From the NCBI GenBank assembly GCA_951406725.2, contig OX597827.1:21266001-21330000 (forward strand): a stretch of DNA of 64,000 nucleotides. The letters are read 5' to 3'. A model generated the notes under the pieces. The model did no database searches, was not told the origin of the DNA, and saw only the letters and a program-made list of their open reading frames with translations. A program made the translations under genes and the position numbers. Positions 1-46,600 of the stretch are shown piece after piece; within the stretch, counting starts at the first letter, position 1, and each line of letters opens with the position of its first letter. This DNA comes from Octopus vulgaris (Eukaryota).

Positions 1-42
1 ACCATTATCATAGAATGTGAAGAAAAACAGAACCAATCTTAC

Positions 43-156
43 CCAATTTAAGAGCCAAATTCTTCCAGTTTGGATGGCGACCAGCAGCATTTAACTTGTC
101 TAGACATAAGAAGCGTTCAAAATGAATGAGATGACAGTCAAATCCTTTCTTATTAC
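43..156 (-). CDS. Coding exon 3 of CARD + death-domain protein (CNKKGFDCHLIHFERFLCLDKLNAAGRHPNWKNLALKLG), start of death domain; gene continues beyond the left edge
   Basis: Acceptor ctcttctaccattgcag at 158-157, 114 nt, phase 1 to phase 1 and compatible with the previous exon, donor GTAAG at 42. LDxLN...NWKxLAxKLG matches death-domain helices 1-2. Confidence 0.8.
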
Positions 157-1091
157 CTGCAATGGTAGAAGAGAAAGGAATTTAGTCAGAATACACACAC
201 ACACCCATTTTCACCACTCAACCCATTCCCCTTCTCATCTCCCTCTCTGCCTCCCACTCTCCTCATTTATTCTTATTTGTTTATTTTTATTTACTCATTC
301 ATTTATTTGGATCACCTACACTTATGATTGTGATCAATTAAATAAATAGACATAATTGCATGTTTACAGGCTGATGTTTGTCGATTGTTTATCCTCTCCA
401 TTTTCTTATTTGCCTTATATATATATATATGCATATAAGGCGTAGGAATGGCTGTGTGGTAAGTAGCTTGCTTACGAACCACATGGTTCCGGGTTCAGTC
501 CCACTACGTGGCACCTTGGGCAAGTGTCTTCTACTATAGCCTCGGATTTGGTAGACGGAAACTGAAAGAAGCCCATCGTATATGTGTATATATATATATA
601 TATATATGATTTCAACAATTGAGGGTAAAATTAATTAATTATTAATTAATTTCACCAAGTGTTCAGTATGCAAAGGGACTTTCGTGAGTTGAGTTGACCA
701 AACACTATACGAGAGAGATTTTCTTTAAGTATTAGAAATGGTTTTTAAAAAAGTTTTTTAGCTGCTATTTCTAATGAGTTCAGTATGCGGCAAAGTAATT
801 TATTTTACTAAGCCCTTTTATATATTATATATATATATGTATATGTATGTGTGTGTATATGTTTGTGTGTCTGTGTTTGTCCCCACAACATCGCTTGACA
901 ACCGATGCTGGTGTGATTACGTCCCCGTAACTTAGCGGTTTGGCAAAAGAGACCGATTGAATAAGTACTAGGCTTACAAAGAATAAGTCCTGGGGTCGAT
1001 TTGCTCAACTAAAGGCGGTGCTCCAGCATGGCCACAGTCACATGACTGAAACAAGTAAAAAGAGTAAAGAGAATATGTGTATATATATATA

Positions 1092-1139
<48 letters not shown>

Positions 1140-1192
1140 TATATATATGCGTATATATATGCGCATATATATATATATACACGCACACACAC

Positions 1193-1243
<51 letters not shown>

Positions 1244-1519
1244 TATATTGTTCACTGATATTTTTTCCTGACATGTCTGTAATGCATTTGTGACTATTCA
1301 GTGGTACAGAAGTATTTTTCACTTCTATCTTTTAGCGATGTAGGTGCTCATGTAGTGCTCTTGTGTATATATATACATACCTAATATTGTATGTATATAT
1401 TTTGTCAATTTGCCTGTACGGTTGATAATTCACTTGCCACTCGTGATAGTATTTTAATAATACCATCCCTATATTTATTTATACATATATATCTTTCCAA
1501 GTGCATATTACTAATTTGG

Positions 1520-2210
1520 TGATAAAATGCAGATGGCTAGCTGGATGGATTCTCTGAACTTTCAGAACAAGAGAGAAGGAGACACTGATGGTCCTTTGGA
1601 AAGCATTCATCCTCAGCTGCTTGGACTACTGCTCCCAACTATGGTCACCACACAATATAAAGCTAACAGCAGAACTCGAAGCAATTCAACGAAGCTACAC
1701 TAAGAAGATTGTCTCAATGCAACATATCAGCTACTGGGAAAGACTGAAAGTATTAAAACTCTTCTCCCTGGAGTGAAGTCGGGAGAGATATGCAGTGATA
1801 TACATCTGGAAAATCCTGGAGGGTCTTGTCCCAAACTTTGGCATTCAAAGTTACCCCAATCGCAGAACGGGGTGCCACTGCATGGTAACAAAGATTCCAA
1901 CATCACCATCAAAATACAGGACCAGATACTGCAACAGCTTGGGTTTCAGAGGACCACAGCTCTTCAACATCCTCCCTAAATGCCTGAGAAACCTGCATGG
2001 TGTGGATGTGGGTTTCTTTAAAACTAAACTGTATCTCTTCTTGTCGGGGGTCCCAGATGAACCTACCTCTCGGCAGGAAACACAGATGCGGGCAGCAGCA
2101 TCGAATTCCCTTGTTGATCAAGTGCCACATATCAGAAGTGGTTTCACATACTAGTGTAGCTCATTCAACGGCGGTGCCCCAGCATGGCCGCAGCCTTCAG
2201 GCTGAAACAT
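1520..2210 (+). mobile_element. CR1/L2-group LINE 3' fragment (C-terminal ORF2 plus 3' tail)
   Basis: Translates as LWKAFILSCLDYCSQLWSPH...LEAIQRSYTKKI...YWERLKVLKLFSLE*..R, the typical C-terminus of CR1-group ORF2, with an internal stop. Confidence 0.85.
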
Positions 2211-2998
2211 TTTTAAGGATTTATATATATATATATGGTTTTGGGTTCAGTCCCACTATGTTGTACCTTTGGCAAGTGTCTTCTACTTTAGCCTCGGGCC
2301 AACCAAAGTCTTGTGAATGGATTTGGTAGATGGAAATTGAAAGAAGCCTGTTGTGCATATATATATATGTATGTATGTATGTATGTATGCATGTATGTAT
2401 GTATGTATGCATGCATGTATGTATGTGTGTGTTTGTGTCTGTGTTTGTCCCCCACCATCATCATTTGACAGCCGATGTTGGTTTGTTTCTGTCCCTGTAA
2501 CTTAGCAGTTCAGCAAAAAAGACCAATACAACAAGTACTAGGCTTACAAAGAATAAATCCTGGGCTCAATTTTTTCGACTAAACCCCCACCCTTGAAGGT
2601 GGTACTCCAGCATGGCCGCAGTCAAATGACAAACAAATAAAAGAATATATATATATGACAGGCTTCTTTCAGTCTCTATTTACCAAATCCACTCATAATT
2701 CTTTGAGCTGCCCAGGCCTATAGTAGAAGACACTTGCCTCACAGTGTAACAACCTGGAACAATATGGTTGGAAAGCAAATATTCTTCCCATACTTTTGAC
2801 AATATATAACACAATACATAACACAAAACATGGATTATGTGATACATATGAACATGGGTCCAAAGTGCAGTGCAGTTGGATCGAACCTGAAATTGTGGAG
2901 TTGCAAAAGAAACTTCTTAAGCACACAGCCATACAATACACTTTTCCTCTGTTTTTCTAAATCTACTTCTCACTCTACCTCTCTAACGTTATACTTAC

Positions 2999-3164
2999 AA
3001 ATCCATTGGCTGAATTCATTAGCAATAGCTTTCTTATTTATGGCATTAGATCTCAATGCTTTCACCAAATTACAATCCCAATTGTCAAATCTAGGAAGTT
3101 CTCTTATAAGTTCCATCATGCCCAATTTACGGCCGCGTCTGTCAATTGTGCATTCTATTCCTTC
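2999..3164 (-). CDS. Coding exon 2 of CARD + death-domain protein (EGIECTIDRRGRKLGMMELIRELPRFDNWDCNLVKALRSNAINKKAIANEFSQWI), second half of CARD
   Basis: Acceptor tctttttcacag, 166 nt open frame, donor GTAAGT at 2998 (phase 1). The ELxxxLPRxxxWxxxLVxALR pattern is typical of RIG-I/MAVS-type CARDs. Confidence 0.88.
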
Positions 3165-4116
3165 CTGTGAAAAAGAAAGACTGATGATATAAAATAGGCA
3201 AGAAATGTTGGTGTCGTAGTTGTTGTCATTATTATTAAGAAGGCAGAAAGCTGGGAGAATAGTTAGCATGACACACAGTCTACCACCAGCACACAAAATA
3301 GAATTGATAATCAACAGGAAGAAACAAAACAAGGAAGTAATTAAAAGAAAAACAAAAAAACAAATGGCTAACTTTTATACCAAGCGTAAACAACAACAAC
3401 AAACAAAAAACACAAATTAACAACATCTGCAGGACTTTTTCCTTCCATAGGAAACACAAAAGGGGAATTCAGAAAAGCCAAATTCTTCAGAACAATGTCA
3501 CAAACATTTCAAATGTTTCATTTCTAACAAATGCAACTTTGACTATTTCTGCCTCAAACAAATGAGTTTCTACGACTAAACAAATGGCAATGTCTCACTA
3601 AACCATTTTTTTTTTTTTGGTATCAACCAGTCTGAGACCATTCCTGGTTCTCTGACACAAACTTCATTGTTTTAAAGAGATCTCTAAGTTAAAAAAACCT
3701 TCCATCATAAATTCATGTTAGTATTCCAAACACCATCCATATGTGGACTCTACAGCAAGTCACCTTACATCTGTTCCCTCAACAGCTTTCAACAGGCACA
3801 AACTCACATGCTCAATAATACTCCATCCCTCCCAGTTCAGGGGGTTCTTGCCTTGCAAGGTATTTGCTTATCTTGCTGGTGCCACACAAAAAAAGCACTG
3901 GCAATCATCATCATCATCATTTAGCATCTACTTTCCATGCTGGCATGGGTTAGACAGTTTGGTTGAAACTGGTAAGCCAGAGAGCTGCACCAGGTTCCAA
4001 TCTGATTTGGTTTGCTTTCTGTGGCTGGATGCCCTTCCTAACACCAACCATTCCAAGAGTGTAATGGGTGCCTTTTACATGCTACTGGCACAGGTACCAA
4101 CTATGATTTCTCTTAT

Positions 4117-4290
4117 AGGGAAAGTTTATGAAAAAAACAAAAGGCGAAGACAGGTGGTGTACAAAACAAACAGATGTATTAGTATAACACTCAGGAATAG
4201 AAAAAGCCTTTTACATTTCGAGCCTATGCTCTTCTACAGAAAGGGACACAGAAAAAACAAGGAGAGAAAAAAAGGAGAGAAGAAAAATGT
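4117..4290 (-). mobile_element. Short Penelope-type terminal element carrying a hammerhead-like motif; homologous copy at 15741-15858(+), related copy at about 8370-8520(+)
   Basis: 4117-4233 is the reverse complement of 15741-15858 with substitutions; contains GAGC-xTAG-GCTC-GAAA. Confidence 0.6.
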
Positions 4291-4850
4291 GTGTAGTGGC
4301 TAATGATCTATCGCTTGATGTGTCTTCTCAAGTATGGCACATCGTTAAAAGTCTCCATCACTTATCTCCTCCACAAAGCCTAATGTTTGAAAAGTGCTTT
4401 TCATGTGCCACCGGCATGGTTGCCAGTCACATGACATTGGCACCAGCCATGACAGGTCTTCTCAAGCACAGCATATTGCCAAAGGGCTCGGTCACTTGTC
4501 TTTGCTTCCAAGAGGTTCAACATTCAAAGATCATGCTTCACCACCTTGTCTTATGTCTTCCTGGGTCTACTTCTATCACAGTTAGAGAGTGAGACTTCTT
4601 TACACAGCTGTCCTTGTCCATATGCATCACATGACCATACCAACGCAGTCATCTCCCTTGCACACCACATCTGATGCCTCTTATGCCCAGCTTTTTTCTC
4701 AAGATGCTTACACTCAAACATGCACACTGACATTATCCATCCAGTGGAGCATACTGGCTTCATTTCTTTCAAGCCTACACATGTCCTCAGCTGTCACAGC
4801 CCATGTTTCACTCCCATGTGGCATGGCTGTTCACACACAGGCGTTAGTGA
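4290..4850 (-). mobile_element. RTE-clade LINE 3' fragment
   Basis: Decayed C-terminal ORF motifs (L.EK.GIRGIRCG...L.WYGHV...RPRKT..VVKHDL). Confidence 0.75.
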
Positions 4851-4859
4851 CTTCAAGCT

Positions 4860-5910
4860 ACTAGCACAAAGGATTCCATGAATCAAGCCAGTTTGGAAAA
4901 GAAGGATATGGAAGTTTAAGGATCTTTCGAATAGTCAGATTTAGAGAAGTCCTAACTGAAGCATTTAATGAGAAGGAGAAGGAGTTACAGAGTGGTAAAA
5001 TAGAGGATAACTGGAAGTTCCTATGCAACAACTTGTTGAGAACTACAGACCAAATCTGTGGTTGGTGTAAAGTCCTGATCAGGCTTGGGGTGACGTGGTG
5101 GTAGAACAGTGTAGCTGACAGGACCATTAGAACAAAGAAAAAGGACTGGAAGGGTGGCATTAGCAAATAGTCAAACAGAAAGGAAGAAGTTTGCCAATGT
5201 TCTACAGCACGAGGACCAGCAGCTTGAAGTGTTTTAGTTTGCGAGTCAGTGTGCCAGGAAAAATTGTGATGTTGTTGGAGAGAAGTGTGTTTACATGGAT
5301 GATGGCTTACTTGCAGGTAATGGCTCTGCAAAAGAAGAGGCTTGGCAGTGCCACTACAAAAGGCTACTAAATGTAGAGAACTCACGAGACAAAGAGTCTG
5401 CTTATTGTGGATCCAACTGAGGGACCAGCAATCCGAATAGACAGTAGCATGGTAGATAAAGCCATGAAGGATATGAAGACCAGCAAAGCCGCTGGTCCAT
5501 CAGAAATCACCTCTGAGATGCTTAAAATATCTGGCAGTGTGGATTAGGGTTTAGTTACCTGTATAGTTAATCAGGCTGTATGCAAGGGATTCGTACACAA
5601 TGACTGGTGTAGCAGTACCATAGTCAACTGCTACAAAGGTAAAGGTGATGACCAAGTAATTAGGGAGAGAGTTAGTCTAGATGAGATGCAGTTTGGTTTT
5701 GTGCCAGGGAGAATCACCACTGATGCTATATTTCTGGTAAAGCTGCTGCAGAAGAAGTACTTAGCCAAAAATAAACCTCTTTCATTGACTCCCTTATCTG
5801 GTGATCAATGCAGAAACTAGGGATAGATAAGTGGTTGGTGAGACCTGTACAAGCCATGTACAGGAATGCTGTCCGTAAGGTGAGGGTTGGCAACAAGTAT
5901 AGCGTTGAAT
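4860..5910 (+). mobile_element. RTE-clade LINE internal (RT) fragment, decayed
   Basis: KAAGPSEITSEMLK, YKGKGD and LDEMQFGFVPGRxTTDAIFL RT motifs with stops and frameshifts. Confidence 0.8.
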
Positions 5911-6149
5911 TAAAAAAAAACACTGTCCTGGAGCCACATACAAAGCATTGATGGTGCCATGTATAAAGCACTGGAAAACAGTCAGTAAGTCACTGAAGTA
6001 TTTTAGGTCTGTTATTTCAGAAGAGAGCAAGGAATAAATACAAATAATAACAAATATCAATGGCAGAGATACAGTTAATAACACAGTTAGGAGAGAGAGA
6101 ATGAGAGAGAGAGAGAGAGAGAGAGAAAGAAAGAAAGAGGGAGACTTAC

Positions 6150-6245
6150 ACTAGTCATAGGATTTAAACCTTTTAGTTCGCTCAGCAACTGTCTAGCGTC
6201 GACTTCACTCACCAGCCTTTGAGCAATCTTCTCAGGTATTTCCAT
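6150..6245 (-). CDS. Coding exon 1 of CARD + death-domain protein (MEIPEKIAQRLVSEVDARQLLSELKGLNPMTS)
   Basis: Acceptor ttccttttag at 6259-6258, in-frame TAA just upstream of ATG 6245, 96 nt (32 codons), donor GTAAGT at 6149, phase 0. Joins in frame to the exon at 3164. Confidence 0.85.
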
Positions 6246-6339
6246 GATTTCTTAAATCTAAAAGGAAATAAATAAATCTATAAACCATGGTTTAGTTAGA
6301 TAAGCAAATATTTAGCTTATCTACCAAAATCACATCACC

Positions 6340-17462: not shown

Positions 17463-17660
17463 CTGTTGAATTTAAAATAAGTTGACTCGGATAAACAAAA
17501 AAAGTGAACGTCAGGAAAATAGAATATATTTTCAACCGGGTAAAAGTAAGATCTATAATTAACGAACAAAACTGTTACAAGTGTCTCGGTTTAAGCGCAG
17601 GCAACAAGGAACTGAAGTAGAGTTACTTCCTTTGACAGCGAGAGTTCGACGAAGTTGTGT
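17463..17660 (-). promoter_or_regulatory. Probable non-coding first exon and promoter of the CARD-DD gene
   Basis: CAG|GTAATG donor at 17462 beside non-repetitive, CpG-enriched sequence (about 17480-18120). The 5' end is not determinable. Confidence 0.5.
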
Positions 17661-19784
17661 TCCTGTTCCTATCTGTTGCTGCTCGTATCTCTGAGTCCGA
17701 CACCATTCCATTCCCACCAAAGATCATATATATTAAACAAGCCACTGTAATTAATTGGTATTTTTTGTTCTTTACGAATCTCTTGAAGGATAGAAAGTAA
17801 ATCTCTGGTGAGATTTAAACTCGGAATAAGGACTTGCATCTCCCTCTGCCCGATACTAATCCTCTTCGTGCCGAATTGGCCGGTCTTGTAAATATATTTC
17901 AGTCGTGTAAGTGTCGGAAAAAAAAATGTAAGTGGGGGAAAAAAAATGTTTACGAAGTTGACAGCAAAACCCCGTTTTACTTGCAGTTTCTCTTCATAAT
18001 TTACCCGGCGCTCTAACATTTCGGCCAGTTTTACTGATTTCGTTCACGTTTCCGGGAACCAGGAAGATATAGAAAAGAAACGGCAAGGAAAATAGCCCGT
18101 TTTGTCAACTTTGCGAACATACAATTTCTGGTAGATACATCAGAAGAATGTACCCACAAAAACGGTAGTTCATATGAAAATAATTTACTATCGGACACAG
18201 GAGGATATAAGTCCTTTAAAACAACCTGGTAGGAGTAGTGAGGGAAAGTAGGAGTTACTTTAATCATCAAACCCCTTCTAAGTTGCAGGCCTTGTGTCTG
18301 TCAGCATCGTCATTATTCTAATGTCTACATTTCCATGTTTGTGTAAACTGCAGGAAACTCGGAGAAACAGATTCTCTACAGTTGGATGCTCTTTCTATCC
18401 CGAACCCTAACCTGCTTTCAAACATGGTAATATTTCCCCCTGTCCTTCAAACATGAACAGTACAACGGCCAGGCATGTTTTTGCAGAAGATTAACAGCTA
18501 AACCACTTGCAAGGTATGATGTTTGCTTACAATTATCCTTCATTGTCATAACAAAGTGACACACACACACACACATATTTATTTATTTATACACACACAC
18601 AATAGCAGGCTTCCTTCCGCCTCCGTCTACCAATCTATTGAAAAGGCTTTAATCAACCTGGACCTGTGCCATACAGTGGGATAGCACCTGAAATGACATG
18701 GTGGAGTAAGAAACTCTTTAACCTCCTATGTCTGCATCTTATGTCTTCCTTCAATTATCTTCAAAATAATCTGCAATTTACTGGTGTTTATTATAGAACC
18801 ATTTTACATTTATTTTCTTAAGCTGGTGTCAACAGGTGCCATGCAAAAAGTACTGGTGCTCGTGCCACGTAAAAGGCACTGGTGATGGTGCCACATAAAA
18901 AAAACCATCCAGTACACTCTGTAAAGTGACTGGTGTTAGCAAAGGTACCCAGGTTTCATAGTCTGTCGAACCATCCAACCCATGCCAGCATGAAAAAACA
19001 GACGTTCAATGACGATGATGATCCTGATATCAACATTAACAAAAAATTACTGGCATATTAACCCTTTAGCAATTAAAGCAGCCGTTTCTGGCCAAAATAT
19101 TCTACTTGATTTATCTTCTGACCGACCAGATCTTGCCTCTCACACTTACCCTACAATATCATTCTAAAAGTAGACACGTCATTTGAAATCTCAAAGCTAC
19201 ACAGTAAAGCATGACTAGTTCAAATCAATGTAAATAAATAAGCATTCGATCTGGCCCACAGTGGCCTTCTCTTCGCTTCGTACATTATGTCATTTTGTTT
19301 GCAAGAAATAGACTGGATGTAAATTGCCATTCTTCAAACTCAGTGAAGTAAAACAAGTTAGGACATGTCACATGCAAGAAATTATGAAAAAAAAAAATAC
19401 AGTGAAATGTCAGACAATAGCTAAGTTATAAGAAAAGCGGAAATCGCTGACTATTGAAGAGCTTTGTGAGTCACTTAACCTTCACATGTCATTTGACACC
19501 CATTGCGTTATATGTAAAGCAATTCAATGGGCAGGTAAGAAAGAGCAGATAATAATAATAATAATAATAATAGTTTCAAATTTTGCCACAAAAGCAGCAA
19601 TTTTGGGGGAGGGGATGAATCAATTACATTGACCCCAGTGCTTGACAACCACTTATTTTATTGACCCCCAAAATGACGAAAGGCAAAGTTAACCTTGGAG
19701 GAATTTGAAGTCAGAATGTCAAGGTGGATGAAATGCCGCTAAACATTTTGCCCAGCACGGTAAGGATTCTGTCAGCTTGCTGCT

Positions 19785-19821: not shown

Positions 19822-22800
19822 TTTCTTTATTAACCACAAAGGGGTTTACATAAAAAAGAAAACCTTATGGAGAAAACAGGATAAATACAATGCGGGGTTA
19901 CATGAAAGTTGAGTAAACAATGGAAAACCTTAACATTAATTGAATATAACAACAAAATTCCCCCAAAGAGGGTTTACCTCCTAGAACTGCTTGTGAAAAC
20001 CCCACAAGTCCACAACAGTTCTGACCACTAGGGTAAGTGCCCTCTTCGCTTTGTCTACAGCCATATGCTTAGAGTAGGCTCACTCACTTGGGCCATTCTT
20101 GCAACGTTCATCCACCTTTTGAGAAAATTACTGCTGGGGGCAGAACATCTCTCTCCACCCTCACTTTTCTTTTCAAGTGAAATTTGAAAAAGTTAATGAA
20201 GGTTTGGCCAAAGAGGAAAGTATCTGTCTTCAGCTCACACAACCTCTTTCACTAAGGCCACCAGGCAAAGAAAAACAGCCTGCCCTTCCTACTCATAGGA
20301 AGGCAGCAGGACTGTCTTCACAATGGACTCAGCCGATAGCTGGATTCGTCCTACACACGACAGCAGGTGTTCGACATAAACCCACAAGTCAGAAATACTA
20401 AGGCACCAGATGAGAGCATGCAAAATGGTTGCGTCACTTTGTGCGCATCTCGGGCAAGCCTGGTTGAATACACTTCCATACCTGTAGAGCTTATCTGAAA
20501 CAAGCAGTGTGCCCTGGTAGCACTGCCAGGCCCAGGATTTCTGGAAATTATCATTAGGTCCCAGCCCAGACCAGCCAACTTGTTCTTATTGACACCCAGA
20601 GTCTCCCCGAGAAATCGTTGCATTTACCCACCCTCTAACCCTCCATAGAACGCCACAATAGAATGGACAGCGACCACATTGCCTGACTGACAGAAGAGCG
20701 TGAGCACCTGATGACACTCTAGGTGCCAGGTGCCCTTCCTTGGTCTACGCTTGATCTAGGGCTGCAGCTCAGTTGTGGGAAATCGCATCTGACAAATAGT
20801 GACCACACTGCTCACCATCTTGGAAGTGCTGGAGATGTCACAGCCTCAGCGCATATCTGTGCATTAATAGCCAAGGCATGCCCAGCCCTCCATTTAATGG
20901 GTGTTGACAGCAAATGGAATGCCTGACCAATGGAATGCATCTCTTCCACAGAAAGCAAAATGGTAGGTGCTCCAGTTTGGCCAGACTTGAACTGGGACAG
21001 GGCACAATGGTAAGCCAGTAGTAGATGATGGATACAATGTAAGCATTTGCCACCTCCACCCAACCTTTCAGGGATAGTTTTCTCTCAGCCCATTTCTGGA
21101 TGAGATTGGCCACCCTGCTTGCTACCTTGTCCTAGTACTTCTCCACCTGGAGATCTGGACCGAACCAGACCCCAAGTAATTAACAGGTCCTTCCATCCAG
21201 CATCCCATGATGCTGTTGGAAGGCATGGACTTGCCTCTCTAGTTGCCAAGTTGCAGGCCCACTGACTTCTGATTAATTTCTGCTCCTGTCACCACTTTGT
21301 ATTCTTTTAGAACAGTGCCAACCAGATTTATGAGCTTAGTGTTCAACACTATGACATTGGCATTGTCTGCATATGCCGACATGGTTTTCCCACATCCTAG
21401 TTTGCGCAGGATGCCTCTCAACGCTTCCAATTTCTGCAGTAATGGCTCTAGAGCCATCACATATAGGAGAGATGAGAGGGGATACTCATGATGGACTGAA
21501 AGCATGATGCTGAAAGGTTCCGATCTGGGTAACTGTTCACCCAATCTACCAAACAGATGTCACTGTACATTGCTGTAATCCACCCATGGAAAATGGGATC
21601 AAAACTGGTTGCCATGAGGATGGCCGCCAAGTATTGGTGGTCAACTCTATCAAAGACTGATCTAAATTGATCAACACCCCACTCATGCCAGCTTCATTCC
21701 CTACCCTGTCTATGATGTATCACATGAGGTGGAGGTTGTCATGGATGGATCTGCTTTAGGATGGTGCATGTGCATCACCAATCAGTTCTTTAATGACAGG
21801 CACCAACCTCTTCACTAGCGCCTTGGCCAAAATTTTGAAGTCTGCATTGAGCAGCATTATAGACCGAAAATTTTCTATTTGATCCATCTTGTTTTGGTCC
21901 TTTTTAAGCAGTTCCATCACTTCTTGGCTCACAGAACTAGGAATTTTCCCATTCTGCTGCCAGTTGCAGTAGGCATCTGCTATGAGATCATCAAACAAGT
22001 CTGGCATATAATAGTAAAGACCATCCAAGCCAGGTGATTTACCTGCTGTGCAGCAGCCCATCATCGCATCCTGTATTTCTGCAGCTGTTATTGTCATTTC
22101 GCAACACCTTACCCCACTTGATGAGAGTCATTGCATGCCATCAAAGTAGGCACTAAAGTCCATCCTGCGTTCCGGATTGCCACTCGTCCCAAACAGTTGA
22201 GCGAAATGCTGCACACATCTGCTTGGGCTCAAGTATTGTGCACCCACCTGGGTCCACCAAAAACCGAATTGTGGCTTTGTTGCCATGTTGAGCCTCAACC
22301 ACTCAGGCACTTCAAGCAGTTTTAATTCCCTCATTTCTTAGAGCACATACCTTAACTCTGACAATTCATCTTTCATGCTTAGTGGTGAAGAATTAGTCAA
22401 GGACCAATCTTGCCGCCTGCACATCAGTTGCAATGCCTCTCCTAAGTCCTTAACTAGCTTTCCTCCTGTTTTATTTTTTTCTATCACTAATGCCTTGCTA
22501 ATCCTAACTGGTTCCATTCTAATTGCCCTTTTCAGGGCGTACAACCATTTATTGTTAAGTAGTGACCCTGTTAATGCTCACTTAACTAATTCGCTAATCC
22601 AGTCTCTGTAAGCTTGGCACGCTGGGAATGATGTGTTCAGCTTCCAGTAATTGGGTCCCTGCCTACCTAGCCTATCTAAGTTGACCATGCAGATCACAAA
22701 TTTGTGGTCTGTGTTATTCTGTCCTCATCGATATCTGTGGCTGTTTCCACGAGCAGTTTCTTGTACAGTCTTTTGTTGATATCTTTCCTGAAGGCCCCAG

Positions 22801-26727: not shown

Positions 26728-29114
26728 CAAGCATACCTTGGCTGAAGTCGTTCTTGATTATATGTCAGTTTTCAAAAATAACATATGGAAAAATAAAAAT
26801 CAAGTAAAGTCATTTTACTCGACTGCACGTCTGTCTGCCACAAATATTGGAATTGTAAAATCACTAGAAAACTGTTAAAAGCACATAAAATGATGTTACT
26901 GCACAATAAATAAGAATAAAAGCATATAAAGTTATATTAAAATGCATAAAGTAAATGTTAAGATACACACCATAAAGTAGGGTAGCTTAGTGAATGAAAT
27001 CATGAAAGTTGTCTTATTTATCGGTCTTTCAGGGCTCATATTGCACTGTAGTTCCAATATCTACTGTTAGGCGTTGTCACTCGTGATTTCCGCAATTGTT
27101 TTGAATTCAAATTTATATCTGTTTATTGGCTTCTTTCTGATTCTCATTCATTTGTGACTTCATTTTCTGCTTCCATAGCTCCTAAGAAAATTCATAGTGA
27201 AAGTGCTAAGCACATGCTATAACACTGGAAGATAAACTGGCTGTGATAAAGTGCTATGAAAAAGGTGAAAAAGTGGTGGCAATTGCACAATCTTTTGGGA
27301 TGAGTCAGCAACTGTATCGATGATTGTACATAATAAGGACAAGATTTTAGTAGATATGAAATCTGAAGCCCCAGGCATGAAGAACACTGTCATCAATAAG
27401 AGGCAAAATCGTTGAAGAAATGAAAAGTTTTGTTTCTCTTTAGATTGTTAGGTTGAATTGTCAGAGTGTTAATATTAGTCAAGAAATCATTCAAGAGAAA
27501 GCGTTGTCTTTGAGGATCTGAAGAAAAAATATCAAGATGAGAAAGATGTAGAGTTCAAGACAAGTCAAGGATAGTTCATGAGATTTAAAGAGCAAAGAAG
27601 TTATCACTCCATTAAGAAGCAAAATAAAAGTGCATCAGCTGATGAACAAGCAGCAGCAGAATTTCCTAATGTATTAAAGAAAATGGGTTTCTTCCTGAAC
27701 AGATTTTTAACATAGACGAAACTGGATTGTATTGGAAAAAATTGCCAGACCGTTCATTCACTTCCAAGGAGAAAATTCCAGGCTACAAGGTGTCAAAAGA
27801 ACGTGTGACCATTATGTTGCTAAGTAACTGTGCAAGAGATTTTAAGTTGAAGCCATTGCTTATGTATCATGCACACAACCCCTGTGCTCTGAAGAACATA
27901 CCCAAGGCATCTCACCCTATTATATGGATGGCTAGTTCAAAAGCATGGGTTACTGTTGTTGTTTTTGAAGACTGGTTCTTCAATCATTTTATCCAAGCAG
28001 CAGAGAAGTACTGTAAGGAGAAGAGGATTCCGTTTAAGGTTTTACTTATCTTAGATAATGCTCTTGGCCACCCACAAAACATTGTAGATTTTGACCCCGA
28101 CGTTACCATCATACGCCTCCCTCTGAATAGCACGTCTCTTCTGCAGCCAATGGATCAGGGAATAATTGCTATCTTCAAGCGTTACTATATGAAGCATACG
28201 CTGTGGCAAGCAATAGCTGCAACTAATCTTGATGAGTCCATCACACTTTGTGACTTTTGGAAGAGATATGATATCTACAAGGCTGCACAGAACATAGCAG
28301 CAACATGGGATGAGGTACAGAGCACGGCTATGAAGGGTGTACAAAAGAAGCTATGCTCGCAATTCGTGAATGACTTTAAGGGGTTTGATAATGTTGCCAT
28401 CAACAAAACGTTAGTGACTAAGAGCAAAGAACTGGAAACGGATTAGGAGGAGGAGGATTTCACAGATTTATTTGAAAAAGACAAGCAGCCCCTGACAAAC
28501 CAGGATTTGATAGAGCTTCATGAGTAGCAAAATAAAGAAGAGGAAATCGAACCTGAACCACGTCACTTTACCATTAAGAAAATGTGGCAAGCATTTGCAT
28601 ATATTGAAAAAGGTCTTTTTATGTTCGAAGATATGGATCCAAATGCTCAATGCTTTTCCAAGATTATGGGGGCTTGTCACGAAGCTTTTGCTCCTTATAA
28701 TGTAATCCTTGAGGAAAAGAAGATTTAAAATTTAAAATAATTTAGTCTCTTTTTCTAATATTGCAAAATAATAACTACTGCATCTGTTTAAGCTTTAAAA
28801 AGGCTTTTATTTTACCATTTCTTATTGCAAACTGCATTCATAAATAAAGTGTCTGTTAATGTACAGTAAACACCGCCAAATTGTAGTCGTAAATTCAGAT
28901 TAATTTCTGTTTTACTGTACTGTATTAAAAAAATAAAAATTATTTGTTTATAAACTTAAAATAGGTTTTTACTAACCATGTATCATTGAAAATGCATTCA
29001 TAAATAAAGTATAGAACTGGGAATGGTTATTATCGGTTTAGCTTAGAGACAAGTAAATTCAACTTGAGTTGTGTCTCCTGGAACCAATTAACGACGTAGG
29101 GTGAGGTATGCTTG
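26728..29114 (+). mobile_element. Full-length decayed Tigger/pogo DNA transposon (about 2.39 kb); transposase remnant about 27175-28725
   Basis: 25-bp imperfect TIRs CAAGCATACCT...GTCGTT, TA at the left flank, CENP-B-type HTH and DDE_1 motifs (FNIDETGLYWKKLP, LLILDNA, TSLLQPMDQGII). Confidence 0.92.
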
Positions 29115-34354: not shown

Positions 34355-35497
34355 CTAGGTAATAGAGACTTTATTTATTTGTTGTGAAGAGCTAGCAATG
34401 ATATAGTTATCATTGTCCACTGTACCTGTGCAGGGCCTCACTTTCAAGTGTCTCTTCATGTGTCGGTTAAGAATACTGTTGAGGGCAAATTTCTTACCAC
34501 AGACTTTACACTCATACAACAATTCTCGGGTGTGTATTTTTATGTGGATGTTACAACTACTGTTTCGAGAGAAGCTCTTACCACAGATATAGCAGCTGTA
34601 GGGCATTTCACCTGTGTGGGTGCGCAAATGGCGCTTCAGGATACTACTGACAGTAAAACTTTTCTCACACACTTCACACTGATAGGGTCGCTCCCCTGTG
34701 TGACTTCTCATATGCACGCGTAAGTTCCCTTTGCGAGAAAACCTCTTCTTGCACACCTCGCATTCATATGGGGTCTCCTTCGTGTGAACGCGCCAATGAA
34801 GCTTCAGTGTGCTGTCACGAGAGAAACTCTTTTCACAGAATTCACAATGGTAAGGTGTCTCGCCTGTATGTACCCTCATGTGGCGCTTTAATAGACTGCT
34901 GACAGAAAACCTCTTTTCACACACTTTGCAGCCGTATGGTTTCTCCCCCGTGTGTGTTCGCATGTGTACATTGAGGCCATTTTTGCGGACAAACTCCTTT
35001 TCACAAATGTTACATTTGAACATCGTACGATGTGTATGAATCTGAATGTGGCGATTAAGGGCAGTGTTCTTAGGGAAGCTCTTGTTACAAATTCTGCAAC
35101 GATATGGTCTTTCAAATGGATGCTTTCGACCATGCTGCCTTAACAGGTTACCATCTGGAAACTTCCCATCACCAGCATCTCCCGTATGTGATGCAAGGTG
35201 TATTCTCAAAAGAGCCCGGCAGGGAAACTCCTTTTTACAACGTTCACAAGTGTTTACTCGTGTGTTTAAAATGTTATCTGAACTTTTATTTTCAGTGCTA
35301 GACTTACATTTATTTGTAAAAGGATCATCTCTTTGGCCAACAAAATCAGTGATTTGGTCAAAACCTTGTTCTGCATTTTCTTTCGCACCAATTTCTTCTG
35401 TGTGAGTTCGAAGATGTTGCTTCAGAAACAATCTTTGAGAAAACTGTTTCCCACAAATATCACAGGAAAAAATGAGTTTTCGGGACGATTTCACCAT
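34355..35497 (-). CDS. C2H2 zinc-finger protein, 380 aa, 10 intact fingers plus one degenerate finger
   Basis: Repeated CxxC-12-HxxxH with TGEKPY-type linkers. Acceptor ttctctgacag (35508-35507) lies 9 nt before the ATG. Confidence 0.95.
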   Translation of the reverse strand: MVKSSRKLIFSCDICGKQFSQRLFLKQHLRTHTEEIGAKENAEQGFDQITDFVGQRDDPFTNKCKSSTENKSSDNILNTRVNTCERCKKEFPCRALLRIHLASHTGDAGDGKFPDGNLLRQHGRKHPFERPYRCRICNKSFPKNTALNRHIQIHTHRTMFKCNICEKEFVRKNGLNVHMRTHTGEKPYGCKVCEKRFSVSSLLKRHMRVHTGETPYHCEFCEKSFSRDSTLKLHWRVHTKETPYECEVCKKRFSRKGNLRVHMRSHTGERPYQCEVCEKSFTVSSILKRHLRTHTGEMPYSCYICGKSFSRNSSCNIHIKIHTRELLYECKVCGKKFALNSILNRHMKRHLKVRPCTGTVDNDNYIIASSSQQINKVSIT

Positions 35498-38400
35498 GAT
35501 TCTTCACTGTCAGAGAATGAGAAAAAAAATAAAAAATAAAAAAGAAATACTACTACTACTAATAATAATCTTTTACTGGCCACAAAAGCCCAAGACATTG
35601 ATTACTGTACAAAGACGAAATAGAAAAGGAAATGGTAGTAGGCTTACACTGGGTCAACAAAACAAGGATATTCATTTCTTTACTACCCACAAGGGGCTAA
35701 ACACAGACAGACAAAGGGATTAAGCCGATTACATCGACCCCAGTGCGTAACTGGTACTTAATTTATCAACCCCGAAAGGATGAAAGGCAAAGTCGACCTT
35801 GACGGAATTTGAACTCGGAACGTAACGACAGATGAAATACGGCTACGCATTTCGCCCGGTGTGCTAACGTTTCTGCCAGCTTGTCAACAAAAGGATATTA
35901 GTAAACAAATAATAAAAACAACAACAAAAACCTAAGAAGGGAGGATCAAACAAGCAAAAGAGCAACAGAATGAGGTGAGTTATATTTGTGTCAGCACACA
36001 ATCTCAGATGATTTGAACACAGCAAAAGTAGAGGAAATACCTTTTCCCAATTATTGCTGCCAGTCTCTAGTACCATATTTCTTCAATTAAATTTTGAAAA
36101 TAATAAAGCATTTATCAAAATAACTGTCCATTATTAAAATGCTATTCTTTTTCTCTCACTAAAGCAGGCAGTGTAGTCTTAGCTGAAAGCCAATTCCATT
36201 CTGCAAGTGGCAGTTGCTGTTTGACATCAACACACAAATCAACATTGCAGGAACACAAATGGTTTCAGTATCCTGCAGGCATCTTGGACATAAGTCTTGT
36301 GTGGGTCAAACCCAAAAAGATCTTATGCTAAACAGCTGAAACCTTACTTCCCCCCCCCCCCACCACCACCACCAATAGAGAATACACTGCTCTCATCTAC
36401 CTCCAGAAGTACTTCTGGGCTCTTGTCATGCATATCATTCCTAATACTTTACACAATGTGAGGCCAGACTTTCTGCTGACCACATAGTCCAACTGGTAGA
36501 GAGTAGTGTGTCTAGCAACACTTTAGATGCTTAACACCCAACACTGGTCAGTACCTTCACTCAGAATCATAGCTCAATCAAAGAGATGAGCTGCAAACAG
36601 CACAGTAAGCGTTACCAATTCACCAATTTCCAGGAACCTCTGCGTATCAGTCACAACATCTTGAGACCCTTATGTAGTGGGAGAAACAGTAAATGGACTT
36701 CTAGACCAGCAAAGCTTGACTCTTTTACACAAAAAGAGTGTATGCCCTGGTCAGATGTCTCCTGAGACAAGGCCTGATCTTCAGGCTGTGGTGCATCACA
36801 AAAATACTCACAATTCTGTATAACAAAAATAATAATGCTTCATCATTGAAGAAACTTTTGGCTCATGCCCCATCTGGTGTAGGCCTGGCTGTGTGGTTAA
36901 GAAGTTTGCTTCCCAACCTCGTGGTTTCTGGTTCAGTTCCACCGCACAGCTCCATGGACAAATGTCTTTTACTATGCCCGTGGCTGAGCAAACCCTTGCA
37001 GGGAGATTTGGTACAGACACTGAAAGAAGCCTGCCGTATGTATGCATGTGTGTGTGTTCTTGATTTGATTTACTTGTTTCAGTCAGTTGACTGTGGCCAT
37101 GCTGGAGCACCGCCTTCAGTTGAGCTAATCGACCCCAGGACTTATTCTTTGTAAGCCTAGTAGTTATTCTATCGGATTCTTTTGCTGAACCGCTAAGTTA
37201 TGAGGACATAAACACACCAGCATCGGTTGTCAAACGATGTTGGGGGGTCAAACACAGACACACACACACATATAACAGGCTTCTTTCAGTTTCCGTCTAC
37301 CAAATCCACTCACACACACACATACACAACAGGTTTCTTGGGCAAGTGTCTTCTACTATAGCCTCGGCCCGACCAAAGCCTTACCTGAGGATGGTAAGAA
37401 GTTAATCTTTAAATAAACGACTACACACTCATCATTATCACTTCCACTTTTCTCTGCTCACATGGATCAAACAGAATTTATTGAGGCAGATGGACGATGC
37501 CCTTCCTGTCACCAAGGAAGGGTCAAGATTTCCTTCCCCATGGCCAAACATGTTTTCAAGGAAGAATGGAAACAAAGTACGTAACCTGCATGACAATGGC
37601 ATTTGTTAACCGTCACCCAATGTCAACATTAGGAGAGAGAGAGAGAGAGAGCAATAAACACACCAGAAACTTGTTTTTAGTTTCCATCTACCAAATCCAT
37701 TCACAATGCTTTGAGTGGCCCTTAGTGAAGAAGTCTCTTGCCCAAGATTCCACACAGTGGGACACAACCCTAAACCATAGAGTTGGGAAGCAGCCTTCTT
37801 ACCACACAGCCACACCAGCACCTCTTATTCTTTTACTTGTTTCAGTCATTTGACTGTGGCCATGCTGGAGCACCGCCTTGAATGGTTTTAGTCAAAGAAA
37901 TCGAATCCAAGACTTATTCTTTGTAAGCCCGTTACTTATTCTATCAGTCTCTTTTGCCGAACTGCTAAGTCATGGGGACGTAAACACACCAACTCCTGTT
38001 GTCAAGCAGTGATGGGACACATAGATATATGCATACATACGTATATATACACACACAACAGGTTTCTTTCAGTTTCCACCTCCCAAGTTGTGGTCGACCC
38101 GGGGCTATAGTAGAAGACATTTGCCCAAAGTGTCACGCAGTGGGACTAAACCCAGAACTATGTGGTTGGGAAGCAAGCTTCTAAACACACAGCCACTCCT
38201 GCGCCTATATATTATGTACACACACACACATCCAACGTGTCTTCTTCCTCTTTTCCTCCACTTCTCTTCCGAGATTAGGATTTCTATATTTTGATTTAGT
38301 AAAAGCTCTTCCAAAAGTCAGTGAAAAGTTTCCAACTTTGTGTGAGATCTGTTCTGTTGTTGCCAGGCGATGGAACAAGCCTCCTCCTTCGTTTCAAGTG

Positions 38401-43159: not shown

Positions 43160-43687
43160 TCATCCATGGTTAGTGTATTCTCTGCTACAGTAATCACTGA
43201 AGCCATTGACAGGTCTTTTCATCCTTGACTGCAGCAGAAATTTACGTTTAAAATGCAATTTCAAATGCAATTTTAGAAGTAGCAGCTTTGAGAAGTTCTG
43301 TTCACATTTTGGACATTGAAAAGTTTTCTTTCCGTGTAATTTTTTGTGTTTCACCAAACAGAAGTCATTCAGAAAGTCTTTATCGCACACTTCACAGTGG
43401 AATGGCTTTTGTGTTGAATGTAGAAGTTGATGTAGTTTTAATGTAAAATCTGAGACAAAAGTCTTGTCACATGACGTACAATTGAACTGTTTTGAATTCT
43501 CCATTGCAGTATGTGAAGCTTTGTGCATCTTCAGGTAGCTGTTGTTTAAGAAATCTTTGTTACACACATAACAATGAAATGACTTTGGTTTGTGATGGAA
43601 ACGTTGGTGAACTTGTAAGGTGAACTCCGAGACAAAATCCATCTGACACATAAAGCAATGAAAAGATTTCTTTTCAGCTAAGTTCAT
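43160..43687 (-). CDS. C2H2 zinc-finger protein, 175 aa, 5 atypical fingers
   Basis: Five CxxC-12-HxxxH motifs. Acceptor tttttgcag at 43694-43693 followed by a Kozak-like GCC-ATG. Confidence 0.88.
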   Translation of the reverse strand: MNLAEKKSFHCFMCQMDFVSEFTLQVHQRFHHKPKSFHCYVCNKDFLNNSYLKMHKASHTAMENSKQFNCTSCDKTFVSDFTLKLHQLLHSTQKPFHCEVCDKDFLNDFCLVKHKKLHGKKTFQCPKCEQNFSKLLLLKLHLKLHFKRKFLLQSRMKRPVNGFSDYCSREYTNHG

Positions 43688-46600
43688 GGCAGCTGCAAAA
43701 AATAAAAATAAAAATAAAGAAATGGTTTTGTATCAAAATATCAAAGATTGCAATAAAAGACATCATTAAAATATAGGAACGAGAATATAAAACCATTTTA
43801 GTTGGAAAACTACAAGTTTCTTGACCATCATATAGTGTGCCCTGAACAAGGCACTGATAAATTGTCACTTTTAATCATCAGTCAACATAAATAAGGAAAG
43901 AATAAAAAGCTTTTAAAGGAGCCAATTAAATGGGCCTCACCCCTGTCATTTTGACTTGCTAAATATATAAGCTAAACCTAACTTCTAAATAAGTAACAAA
44001 AAAAAAACAAAAAAACTCTACACCCAGTGAAAGGTCAACTACTTAAATGGTGACCTCATGACATTTCTCATGAGCCTCTTGTCTAGAAAAATCCATTTAC
44101 ACCCAAACAGCCAATAGTTATTTAAACAAAACTTTTTGGATGTGTGGAAGTATAAATTTATAAAATAGCAGCAACCCCAGGGACTCAAACAGTCTAAACT
44201 TTGAAAGTTCACACAAAGCAAAATAGAAAATTACTTTCTCGTTCAAACCCAAATTTCTCCAATTCTACTTATATATATTTTTTTTAAACTCCATCCACCT
44301 ATTTAATATGCGCTAGCTTCAAGGTGGTACCCCAGCATGGCCACAGTCTAATGACTGAAACAATTGATATACACACACACAGGTGGGCACCGTTAATTGA
44401 AAAGCTAACTTCGTTAATCTCTTAATTCTTTGAAAATTTAACTGATGTTCACATTAACTTTTATTGAAAAAGGCATAACTATGGTTTAATACCCCACCGA
44501 TTTTGTTGCATAATTTCCAGAATATTAGATACTTTTTAATGAAATTCACCAAATAATTGCTTATACCCTGTAGATTGAGTGTATGTAAAGATTTATAAGA
44601 AAAAATTTCCAAAAGGTTGGAGAGAGGAGTTTTGGAAAATTCACAGGACCCAACATTTTCCCCCTCAAAACTTTCTGAAAAATAGGTATTTTTTACTGAA
44701 ATTTTATACAAATACCTTTCAAAAGGTGTAGATTATGATTACAAAGAAATTTGTAGGCAATATTTTTGAAAGGGGGCAAGGGGCGGAGTTTCTGAAAAAC
44801 GATGTTTCGGATCAGATGGCCCACATAAGTTAGAATTTCTCCATTTTGACAGGGATTTTTCCAATGCTTTTCAACGAAGTCTTCAGAATGATTGAAAGCA
44901 TCTTTTCATATAAAAAAAAAAAAGAAAGAAAATATTTTCAAAAAAATTTTTTTCCCCCACTCCAAAACGATTTTGGCCATTTTTTTTTTTTCACTTTGCA
45001 CTTAAAACCCGTGAGAAAAACATTTTCGGTTTAAAAACAAAAAAAAATTTAATTTCTGAGGAAAATGTGTGATTTAAGGGAGATCTGGCTGTTGTTTCTA
45101 GCATATCCCAAAACCTCCCTCCTCATTTCTTTCTCATTCACACAACTATTGATATTTTTCAATATTTTTCTACCCATAAACAAATTTTATGGAATGATAT
45201 CAAAGTAACTCACATGTAGTCCTAACTAAGTGAGACCATGTTATGTGTGTGTGTGTAAGAAAAAAAACACCTTTAATCATCATCATTTAACGTCCGCTTT
45301 CCATGCTAGCATGGGTTGGACAGTTCAACTGGGGTCTGGGGAGCCCGAAAGCTGCACCAGTCCAGTCAGATCTGGCAGTGTTTCTACAGCTGGATGCCCT
45401 TCCTAACGCCAACCACTCCGAGAGTGTAGTGGGTGATTTTATGTGCCACCGACACAGGTGCCAGACGAGGCTGGCAAACGGCCACGCTCGGATGGTGTTT
45501 TTTATGTGCCACCGACACAGGTGCCAGACGAGGCTGGCAGACGGCCACGCTCGGATGGTGTTTTTATGTGCCACCGACACAGGTGCCAGATGAGGCTGGC
45601 AAACGGCCACGATCGGATGGTGTTTGTTACGTGCCCACAGCACGGAGGCCAGTCGATGCGGTACTAGCTACGGCCACGTTCGGATGGTTTTCTTGTGTGC
45701 CACGTGCCACCGGCACCACAAAGATACAAATTCCATTGATGTTCATCTATTTTGATTTGTTTTGATTTTCACTTGCCTCAACAGGTCTTCACAAGTGTCA
45801 CAAGAAGGAAGGTAAGCACAGGTGGACTGACTACGTCCCAGGTAAGGGCCAATGTTCATATTAATCTGTCAAATGTAATGCTTATTTGTTCATGTTAATT
45901 TGAATTATACACGTTCCACAATATTTGTTTGTAACTTTGTAAATTTTTTACATAGATTTGAAATTTTGTCAGTGGGTGCTTTATATACCACTGGTTTATA
46001 GTTATGTAACTTTAGCTGATCATGCTGAGTAAATTTGACTTTTATGGGCAGGTAAATTTAATTAACAGGTGTAAAAGCAATAACATTATTGGATAAACAC
46101 TAAAATTAGATTTCTTAATGCATCTTACCAGTTTGATTTGTTACTAAAATTATCCCAGGTGGTAACCGACAAAAATTTTGCCACTTTTGAAGATGAGGTA
46201 CATTAATTTGAATTAATTAAAATACAGGAATAATCAGTACAAGATTTTATTCTTTCGGTAAATATTTTGTACCTCGGTGTGGAATAATTTTTTTCCACAG
46301 TTCTTTTTGCAGGTGCATTCAACGTATCTGATCTCCAAACACATTGCAAGCTACTTTTTTTCCAAAAAAGAAAGATAGGAGGGATGGCAGGGACCTCAAA
46401 GTTTCCCCACCAAGGGGCTTTTGTTTCGCGCGTCTTTTCCAGGTTATTTTGTACGCTTTCAAAGAATGTGACACCGAAATCACGCGTAAACAGCTCCTTT
46501 TTCCAGAAAAGGAAAGATTTAGCTGCTATTTCTAGCATGCCCTGCTACCACGTAACGGCTATTTGTGTTTACACAGAAATATTTACCAACTTTCTTCCTT

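Follow-up and report, generated by a model that had tools for sequence, protein, structure and literature searches.

Which gene do three small exons at the left end of a 64,000-nucleotide stretch of Octopus vulgaris DNA (hereafter the window) belong to, and does it encode an antiviral adaptor of the MAVS type? The initial annotation had described a hidden, spliced gene for a CARD followed by a death domain. We asked whether this gene structure holds, to which family the protein belongs, and what role it might have.

The three exons are part of a four-exon gene that encodes a 393-amino-acid protein. The minus-strand coding exons in the window (6245-6150, 96 nt; 3164-2999, 166 nt; 156-43, 114 nt) have GT-AG boundaries and intron phases of 0, 1 and 1, and they splice into the same 126 residues that were originally described. 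The donors of exons 1, 2 and 3 are GTAAGT, GTAAGT and GTAAGA, and the acceptors are AGs in a pyrimidine-rich context. Exon 1 (6150..6257, minus strand) contains the ATG at 6245, and its 5' bound had to be corrected: the exon begins at 6257, downstream of an acceptor AG that ends at 6258. It encodes residues 1-32, the first half of the CARD, up to a phase-0 donor after 6150. Exon 2 (2999..3164, minus strand) encodes residues 33-87 plus one base, the second half of the CARD, and exon 3 (43..156, minus strand) encodes residues 88-126, a short linker and the first helices of the death domain; both end in phase-1 donors. The start of intron 3 (1..42, minus strand) crosses the left edge of the window toward coding exon 4. 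Looking further left, as the initial annotation had advised, recovered this exon 3.4-4.2 kb from position 1, outside the window (G000:C14:21261768-21262573, equal to L002:5768-6573, minus strand). Exon 4 encodes the rest (and most) of the death domain, a disordered linker, and a C-terminal anchor of hydrophobic residues that ends in a short basic tail, and it has a stop after residue 393. The gene was counted as single-copy in the octopus genome.

The gene is not hidden: it is already annotated in O. vulgaris, as uncharacterized. The spliced peptide is identical to residues 1-126 of the deposited protein CAI9732581.1 (P0002), a record that is probably not independent of the present assembly. 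Orthologues are found in O. sinensis, O. bimaculoides and Argonauta, every one unnamed in the databases, and those of these three other octopods align through the exon junctions. Because of the identical deposited protein and the alignment of the orthologues through the junctions, the gene structure is more than chance. Exon 4 words were present in 20 of 24 sequencing runs listed by a run search, with no RNA run among the matches listed.

A second deposited model from the same locus (P0003, 402 amino acids) has the first CARD helices replaced. It uses a putative upstream exon of 23 nt, bounded by AG and GT (17463..17485, minus strand), that is likely a 5' leader. A putative first exon (17981..18019, minus strand) opens with an upstream ATG at 18019 and ends at a GT donor; its joining to exon 1 is possible and would give a putative 36-codon upstream ORF that stops at 6211 and overlaps the main ATG out of frame. 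The P0003 model raises the prospect that actual splicing differs from that described here, with another isoform as the dominant product or with a silent gene. We consider this highly improbable, as the intact CARD start is shared by the Argonauta protein and by the RefSeq models for two further Octopus species, and all four exons have open frames and canonical splice sites.

The CARD is of the RLR/MAVS type, as had been proposed from its helix pattern. The full-length protein (P0002) matched Pfam CARD_2 (PF16739) at 29.2 bits against a cut-off of 28.2, a thin margin, and the O. bimaculoides and Argonauta orthologues had no CARD_2 match. There was no match to the PF00619 CARD family at E<=10 (P0001) or E<=1 (P0002). 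Among single exons, only exon 2 matched a Pfam family, below the cut-off. A CARD_2 search of the octopus genome (13 matches, 18 candidates) missed the gene because introns split its CARD, and further intron-split CARD genes may have been missed as well.

Structural comparisons placed the CARD closest to that of MAVS. The predicted structure had a pLDDT of >90 across the CARD, and the best match was the MAVS CARD (4p4h_I; Z 14.1, rmsd 1.4 A, 89 residues), followed by RIG-I CARD2 (Z 12.4) and an Apaf-1/caspase-9 entry (Z 11.9). This better model was built with bivalve MAVS rows and may lean toward them; in a model from octopus-only rows MAVS was tied with Apaf-1/caspase-9 (Z 8.7-8.8). Foldseek returned no row at E<=0.001. 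Profile searches of the PDB with the CARD matched MAVS, RIG-I and MDA5. Searched against PDB sequences, three Octopus rows gave nothing below E 0.1, and four octopod rows gave the FADD death domain (E 0.01) and the MAVS CARD (E 0.11). Solved MAVS entries include mutants of R64 and E26; as we read the alignments, the octopus CARD retains the residue corresponding to R64, and Gln stands at the position of E26.

The death-domain signature pointed out in the initial annotation belongs to a death domain directly after the CARD. Pfam Death (PF00531) matched P0002 at 25.5 bits (cut-off 22.6), and in the predicted structure residues 94-186 matched the death domains of MyD88 and of FADD (Z 10.6-10.8). 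The linker between the two domains is unusually short, as had been remarked: between two fixed landmarks the spacing is 57-58 residues in three octopod proteins versus 76-94 in four scallop-type proteins.

A CARD followed closely by a death domain is also the order in CRADD/RAIDD, and the protein could in principle be a CRADD-like or other apoptotic adaptor that recruits an initiator caspase and resembles MAVS in fold only. The short linker, the tie with Apaf-1/caspase-9 CARDs in the octopus-only model, and the first feature match in the ESM Atlas, a CRADD cluster at 0.84, all favor such an adaptor. That score is below the 0.9 threshold and, with 152 shared features, is a lead only; a MAVS-like cluster was at rank 22, and the whole-protein Atlas search gave no usable match. 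PF00619 is found in 75% of the Atlas CRADD cluster and not in the octopus protein, the PDB profile matches of the CARD are to MAVS, RIG-I and MDA5, and the octopus death domain is followed by a 190-residue linker and a membrane tail. The CRADD CARD was absent among the PDB and fold matches listed, an absence that does not in itself speak against CRADD. Taken together, we regard an apoptotic adaptor as improbable.

The closest relatives of the protein outside cephalopods are scallop-type CARD-death-domain proteins, in line with the MAVS affinity first suggested. A profile search of 1.84 billion proteins gave seven matches at E<=0.001. Two of them were named proteins from cephalopods, four carried no name, and the one named protein from outside the cephalopods was a CARD_2 and Death protein from Pecten. 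The next round added MAVS of Azumapecten farreri, likewise defined by CARD_2 and Death. BLASTP against A. farreri MAVS gave 24% identity over 219 columns (E 2e-8), and profile-profile comparison gave a probability of 97.3% (E 2.3e-11) spanning both domains. With a bivalve CARD profile, the octopus CARD scored 33.1 bits, compared to 15.1 for CARD2 of the octopus RLR and 7.7-11.5 for six C24 CARDs. In the reverse search with the scallop MAVS CARD against the octopus genome, in which six candidates were scored, exon 2 was the first of two matches, at an E value (2.08) that is weak and not significant alone. A CARD tree (98 columns, 17 rows) joined octopod and bivalve rows at only 79/79; it included 6 of the 11 C24 CARDs and left out vertebrate, CRADD and RLR CARD1 rows.

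Several of these matches would also be expected of a cephalopod-specific RLR offshoot, in which a duplicated CARD acquired a death domain and a tail and converged on the MAVS layout. The CARD_2 family spans RLR and MAVS CARDs, RIG-I CARD2 was second in the fold search, the summed score of the RIG-I tandem CARDs led one PDB profile search, and domain grafting is frequent in lophotrochozoan RLRs (PMC8998645). Against this, the similarity to scallop MAVS is collinear through both domains, and the intron positions differ: CARD2 of the octopus RLR lies within one exon, and the intron in CARD1 of that receptor is in phase 1, some four codons upstream of the place where the phase-0 intron of the gene described here falls. 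We judge an RLR offshoot to be very improbable. Based on these sequence comparisons, we conclude that the gene is probably the cephalopod orthologue of bivalve MAVS. By the same comparisons, the protein is a divergent member of the bivalve-type MAVS family and new to it, the CARD-death domain-TM type of MAVS being already known from bivalves. We found no paper naming a cephalopod MAVS, and nothing on one in PMC10844198, PMC11252417 or the PMC4199593 supplements (2 files).

The C-terminal region has the features of a tail-anchored adaptor. About 210 residues follow the death domain, of which ~190 (9% Pro in the linker) precede the tail. The predicted TM anchor takes the form of a hydrophobic segment at 371-387 with a hydropathy peak of 1.85, called by simple hydropathy rather than a dedicated predictor, and a six-residue tail of net +2. 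Anchor and tail recur in the proteins of O. sinensis, O. bimaculoides and Argonauta, the segment is a helix in the predicted structure, and 10 of 11 proteins examined have a C-terminal hydrophobic segment with a tail of net +2 to +3. Between sister octopus species, 1 of 187 linker residues differs, versus 6 of 88 in the CARD.

A candidate for the TRAF-binding motif that had been anticipated was found. The linker contains PIECT at residues 251-255 (exon 4), and a Px(Q/E)x(T/S) motif (PIECT or PIQCS) is at the same place in all four linkers close to the octopus protein; the pattern also matches 42% of shuffles of the octopus linker, which has other conserved islands. The TRAF6 motif PxExxZ was not found in the octopus linker, and a pLxIS-like motif had no match in the octopus linker or in four scallop-type proteins. 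The octopus Px(Q/E)x(T/S) motif resembles the TRAF-binding peptide of TANK (PMC6125299).

Potential pathway partners are encoded elsewhere in the octopus genome. There is a separate RIG-I-like receptor on contig C2 with two CARDs, helicase motifs and a C-terminal domain, and IRF matches at three places mark three IRF genes; by Pfam, the CARD-death-domain protein has neither a DExD/H helicase nor an RLR C-terminal domain. C2H2 genes are common in octopus. Those that the initial annotation had placed next to the gene are real, but they lie 28-52 kb from the start codon, and we set them aside as distant and of a common kind.

The predicted tail-anchored MAVS orthologue would probably relay signals from the octopus RIG-I-like receptor at the mitochondrial outer membrane, a location that we infer from the tail and from oyster data. 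If the protein works as MAVS does in human and oyster, double-stranded RNA of a virus would free the CARDs of the receptor, which would nucleate self-assembly of the CARD of the octopus protein. Once clustered, the death domains, together with the PIECT motif, might recruit death-domain partners and TRAF2/3/5-type ligases, and IKK/TBK1-type kinases would turn on NF-kB and IRF targets. MAVS of oyster has the CARD-Death-TM layout and interacts with TRAF6 and with the CARDs of RLRs, and knocking it down increases mortality from virus (PMC5557890). By this analogy we think an activating role in antiviral signalling likely, and hold it less well supported than the orthology.

A MAVS descendant could instead act as a brake or modulator that binds RLR CARDs and represses antiviral genes at rest or steers cells to death. 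Nematostella CARDIB is MAVS-like and represses at rest, so that similarity to MAVS need not imply orthology or activation (bioRxiv 10.1101/2025.11.22.689925), and oyster MAVS in human cells did not activate reporters and dampened TRAF6- and IRF-driven ones (PMC5557890). The lack of a detected pLxIS-like or TRAF6 motif and the Gln at the E26 equivalent, though the R64 equivalent is kept, fit a brake as well. On the other side, the octopus protein, unlike the CARD-only CARDIB, has the complete series of CARD, linker and tail seen in signalling MAVS, and knockdown of oyster MAVS lowers IRF expression and survival (PMC5557890). We consider a brake unlikely and favor an activating MAVS.

This identification fills a gap and does not reveal a new kind of system. 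Molluscan MAVS has been described from oyster and scallop, and it is reported to be lacking in Aplysia and in five abalone proteomes (PMC11103948, PMC9334734). With a cephalopod copy at 24% identity that automatic naming missed, MAVS would therefore predate the bivalve-cephalopod split, and the gaps in gastropods would therefore be losses or detection failures. The gene is also a candidate adaptor for the response of the squid RIG-I pathway to symbiont RNA, proposed in the available part of PMC7665748 with the adaptor unnamed. It is conceivable, although we are doubtful, that cephalopods keep a working RIG-I-MAVS alarm in which the adaptor has a compacted CARD-death-domain head that changes fast under an arms race with viruses, with damping by the putative overlapping upstream ORF. 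If so, one could test whether the extreme A-to-I editing seen in octopus RNA serves, among other things, to stop self RNA from firing the pathway. ADAR1 guards against self-RNA sensing in mammals, and the gene offers a knockdown target for asking whether cephalopod RNA editing does the same.

Comparison with known systems sets the protein closest to bivalve MAVS. CRADD is a short soluble protein that ends at its death domain. The octopus protein differs from it in having a CARD_2-type rather than a PF00619 CARD and in the long linker and membrane tail. Vertebrate MAVS (IPS-1/VISA/Cardif) has in common with it the CARD fold, the predicted tail anchor and a candidate TRAF2/3/5-type motif; the octopus protein is shorter, its CARD is followed by a death domain where vertebrate MAVS has a proline-rich region, and it has no detected TRAF6 or pLxIS-like motif. 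The initial annotation had matched two introns to vertebrate MAVS. In a gap-free alignment, the octopus phase-0 intron behind residue 32 falls at residue 39/40 of human MAVS, the presumed place of the human mid-CARD intron. Published data back the other match: mammalian MAVS has an exon boundary just after the CARD, at residue 97 (PMC5536018), about five aligned positions later than in octopus. We found no literature source for the mid-CARD intron, and nothing on intron positions or motifs in PMC4565553 or PMC3697994. CARDIB also has a MAVS-like CARD in an RLR-bearing invertebrate, but it is CARD-only, adjoins an RLR gene and represses at rest (bioRxiv 10.1101/2025.11.22.689925); the octopus gene encodes a death domain and a tail and is on contig C14, with the RLR on C2. 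Relative to MAVS of Azumapecten (Chlamys) farreri (UniRef A0A9E8G2Y9), the octopus protein has a CARD-death domain spacing ~20-35 residues shorter and two inserted residues ahead of the final CARD helix. Its death domain is missing the tryptophan that four scallop-type proteins retain in helix 4, and its Px(Q/E)x(T/S) motif has no counterpart in A. farreri MAVS. Crassostrea gigas CgMAVS (PMC5557890) was considered by its description, its sequence being outside these comparisons. At ~24% identity, the octopus and scallop proteins share a single CARD_2 CARD, then Death, a long low-complexity linker, and an anchor with a basic tail.

The spliced gene is real, and the initial annotation assembled it correctly. 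In the window (contig C14, positions 21266001-21330000), its three minus-strand exons (6257-6150, 3164-2999 and 156-43, with the start codon at 6245) show the GT-AG boundaries and the phases 0, 1 and 1 that had been proposed. The acceptors are rich in pyrimidines, and together the exons encode the same 126 residues. Exon 2 matched a single protein among seven candidates, LOC115219089 of O. sinensis (P0001), whose cluster includes two O. vulgaris models. Residues 1-126 of one O. vulgaris protein, P0002 (CAI9732581.1, 393 aa), are identical to that peptide; this is not independent evidence, because the record probably comes from the same assembly as the window. Independent orthologous proteins were found in O. 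sinensis (97%), O. bimaculoides (66%) and Argonauta (30%); databases name the octopod proteins "uncharacterized" or "death domain-containing". The remainder of P0002 comes from a single coding exon (C14:21262573-21261768, minus strand) that lies outside the window, 3.4 kb to its left. The present locus was the only match when the genome was searched with exon 2 and with the beginning of exon 4.

The second deposited model, P0003, uses two putative leader exons (18019-17981 and 17485-17463, minus strand). Spliced to exon 1, they would create a 36-codon, out-of-frame ORF that overlaps the main start (region 6211-6257); upstream ORFs overlap the main start of human MAVS likewise. In P0003 this ORF is spliced to the later half of the CARD, and the encoded protein lacks the first CARD helices. 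The palindrome TTCCCGGAA, which we take to be a STAT GAS-like motif with an ETS core also inside, lies at 18050-18058, 30 bases ahead of the upstream ATG. Because the window has two such sites, it is only a lead toward a possible inducible promoter. Elsewhere in the window are three minus-strand C2H2 zinc-finger ORFs (34355-35503, 43160-43732 and 57549-58475; two were checked against Pfam), and broken reverse-transcriptase-like (LINE) pieces with a DDE transposase-like ORF (21239-22127, 27670-28446 and 1777-2154), called by inspecting translations by eye; the single LINE-like piece tested had no Pfam match.

Very likely the gene represents the bivalve-type MAVS family in cephalopods, with a function that we infer. 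The CARD and death domain recognized in the initial annotation were both recovered by Pfam in P0002, as CARD_2 at residues 1-88 (29.2 bits, cut-off 28.2) and a death domain at about 95-184 (25.5, cut-off 22.6); PF00619 was not matched in this search. A better structure model, built from 12 rows that included bivalve rows, had block pLDDT of 92-97 for the CARD and 72-94 for the death domain; pLDDT was mostly <50 across residues 187-366, and there was a helix at the C-terminal end. A candidate for the anchor, suggested earlier as something to look for, lies within the last 23 residues, where residues 371-387 are hydrophobic and are followed by a short tail with a net charge of +2. The same two features close 10 of the 11 proteins compared, all except the Pecten model; mitochondrial tail anchors typically have short basic tails. 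The CARD-death domain linker is short, as had been noted, with landmark spacing of 57-58 residues in three octopod proteins versus 76-94 in four scallop-type proteins; spacing in the related protein P0009 is 65.

TRAF-binding motifs had also been suggested as something to look for. Among the few islands of the long linker conserved between Octopus and Argonauta, PIECT/PIQCS fits the Px(Q/E)xT motif for TRAF1/2/3/5; neither a TRAF6 motif nor a pLxIS-like one was found in the linker. The pattern alone is weak, appearing in 42% of linker shuffles. PIECT/PIQCS resembles the TRAF-binding peptide of TANK (PMC6125299).

Substitutions between the sister species O. vulgaris and O. sinensis were concentrated in the CARD. 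Differences numbered 6/88 in the CARD, 3/96 in the death domain and 1/187 in the linker (Fisher p 0.005 for CARD versus linker, a test picked after the data were seen), and 7 of the 11 substitutions between P0002 and P0001 fell within residues 1-89. Against O. bimaculoides, the folded part was conserved no better than the linker (p 0.14). Positive selection is common among antiviral adaptors, and the CARD divergence may be a lead to it here.

We searched 1.84 billion representatives with a profile of three Octopus proteins. The seven matches at E<=0.001 were the O. bimaculoides and Argonauta proteins, two pieces close to the octopus gene, P0008 (CARD_2, Death, tail), P0009 (CARD_2, tail, reduced death domain) and a Pecten protein (CARD_2 and Death). 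Adding these to the profile gained 5 of 7,999 scored candidates, including the scallop A. farreri MAVS, and the alignment of octopod and scallop-type profiles spans both domains (probability 97.3%, E 2.3e-11). Among the octopus CARDs compared, a bivalve CARD profile gave the present one 33.1 bits versus 15.1 for the second CARD of the octopus RIG-I-like receptor and 7.7-11.5 for six CARDs on C24; P0009 and P0022 received only about 6 bits. In the reverse search of the 2.8-Gb genome with the scallop CARD, exon 2 was the best match at a non-significant E of 2.08, and in the CARD tree support for uniting octopod with bivalve rows reached just 79/79. P0009 and P0022 (364 aa) have a CARD_2-like CARD below cut-off, with the octopod two-residue insertion, and a tail; their death domain is much reduced, with no Pfam Death match, and this lineage may be losing it.

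Among 48,161 solved chains, the first match of the 12-row model was a MAVS CARD (4p4h_I; Z 14.1, 1.4 A, 89 residues) and the second CARD match was RIG-I CARD2 (Z 12.4); its second domain resembled the MyD88 and FADD death domains. With an octopus-only model, MAVS and Apaf-1/caspase-9 tied in the fold search, and MAVS CARDs took the top two places in Foldseek (E 0.18 and 0.63). The Atlas feature search placed a CRADD cluster first, at 0.84, below the Atlas's own lead threshold. A CRADD-like adaptor fits less well than a tail-anchored MAVS-type adaptor, and we consider it improbable.

We believe that the octopus protein would act as a tail-anchored adaptor whose CARD, nucleated by activated RIG-I-like receptor (RLR) CARDs, would polymerise and recruit death-domain partners and TRAFs, and that these would switch on NF-kB and IRF targets. 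These steps are modelled on oyster MAVS (PMC5557890) and vertebrate MAVS (PMC6723221). Oyster MAVS self-associates, binds TRAF6, binds RLR CARDs only with the tail present, and protects against herpesvirus. The same oyster study reports that it activated no reporter in human cells and did not bind TRAF3, and the Nematostella CARD-only protein CARDIB looks like MAVS yet represses (bioRxiv 10.1101/2025.11.22.689925); a modulating role is therefore conceivable for the octopus protein, if unlikely.

CARD-Death-TM MAVS is known from oyster and scallop and reported missing in abalone and Aplysia (PMC11103948, PMC9334734). The literature searched, mostly outside subscription journals, named no cephalopod MAVS, and four identifiers of the octopus gene and protein were absent from the matching papers listed. 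An O. vulgaris hemocyte paper (PMC4199593) includes MAVS in a present/absent figure; no MAVS entry was found in two of its supplements. A supplement of the CARDIB preprint covers 1,055 UniProt CARDs and could include an octopus one.

The genome has an RLR gene of about 206 kb (contig C2, 137543386-137749140, minus strand; loci L013, L026, L028-L045, L049-L052) with two CARDs, helicase motifs and a RIG-I C-terminal domain; only one intact match to that domain was found genome-wide. Three IRF genes (C1:51093188-51096516, C10:37529530-37545193 and C25:8934847-8936531) each have the DNA-binding domain across two exons. Eleven CARD-coding exons form an array over 206 kb (G000:C24:38852643-39058600, L014-L024); they fall into two groups by sequence, are found in either orientation and each have an acidic leader ahead of them; in one copy (L022) the frame is broken ahead of the CARD. 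Six were placed in the tree, and none grouped with MAVS-type CARDs.

Intron positions bear on the origin of the gene. The second CARD of the RLR lies within one exon, and the first is interrupted by a phase-1 intron (its first exon, a weak profile match at E 0.68, was accepted on donor site and frame). The mid-CARD intron of the octopus gene is phase 0 and differs from it in place and phase, which counts against a simple RLR offshoot; that origin fits less well than a tail-anchored MAVS-type adaptor, and we find it very improbable. The mid-CARD intron aligns to residue 39/40 of human MAVS, where we take the human gene to have a phase-0 intron. Mammalian MAVS has an exon boundary after residue 97 (PMC5536018), and the octopus post-CARD intron lies about five aligned positions before it.
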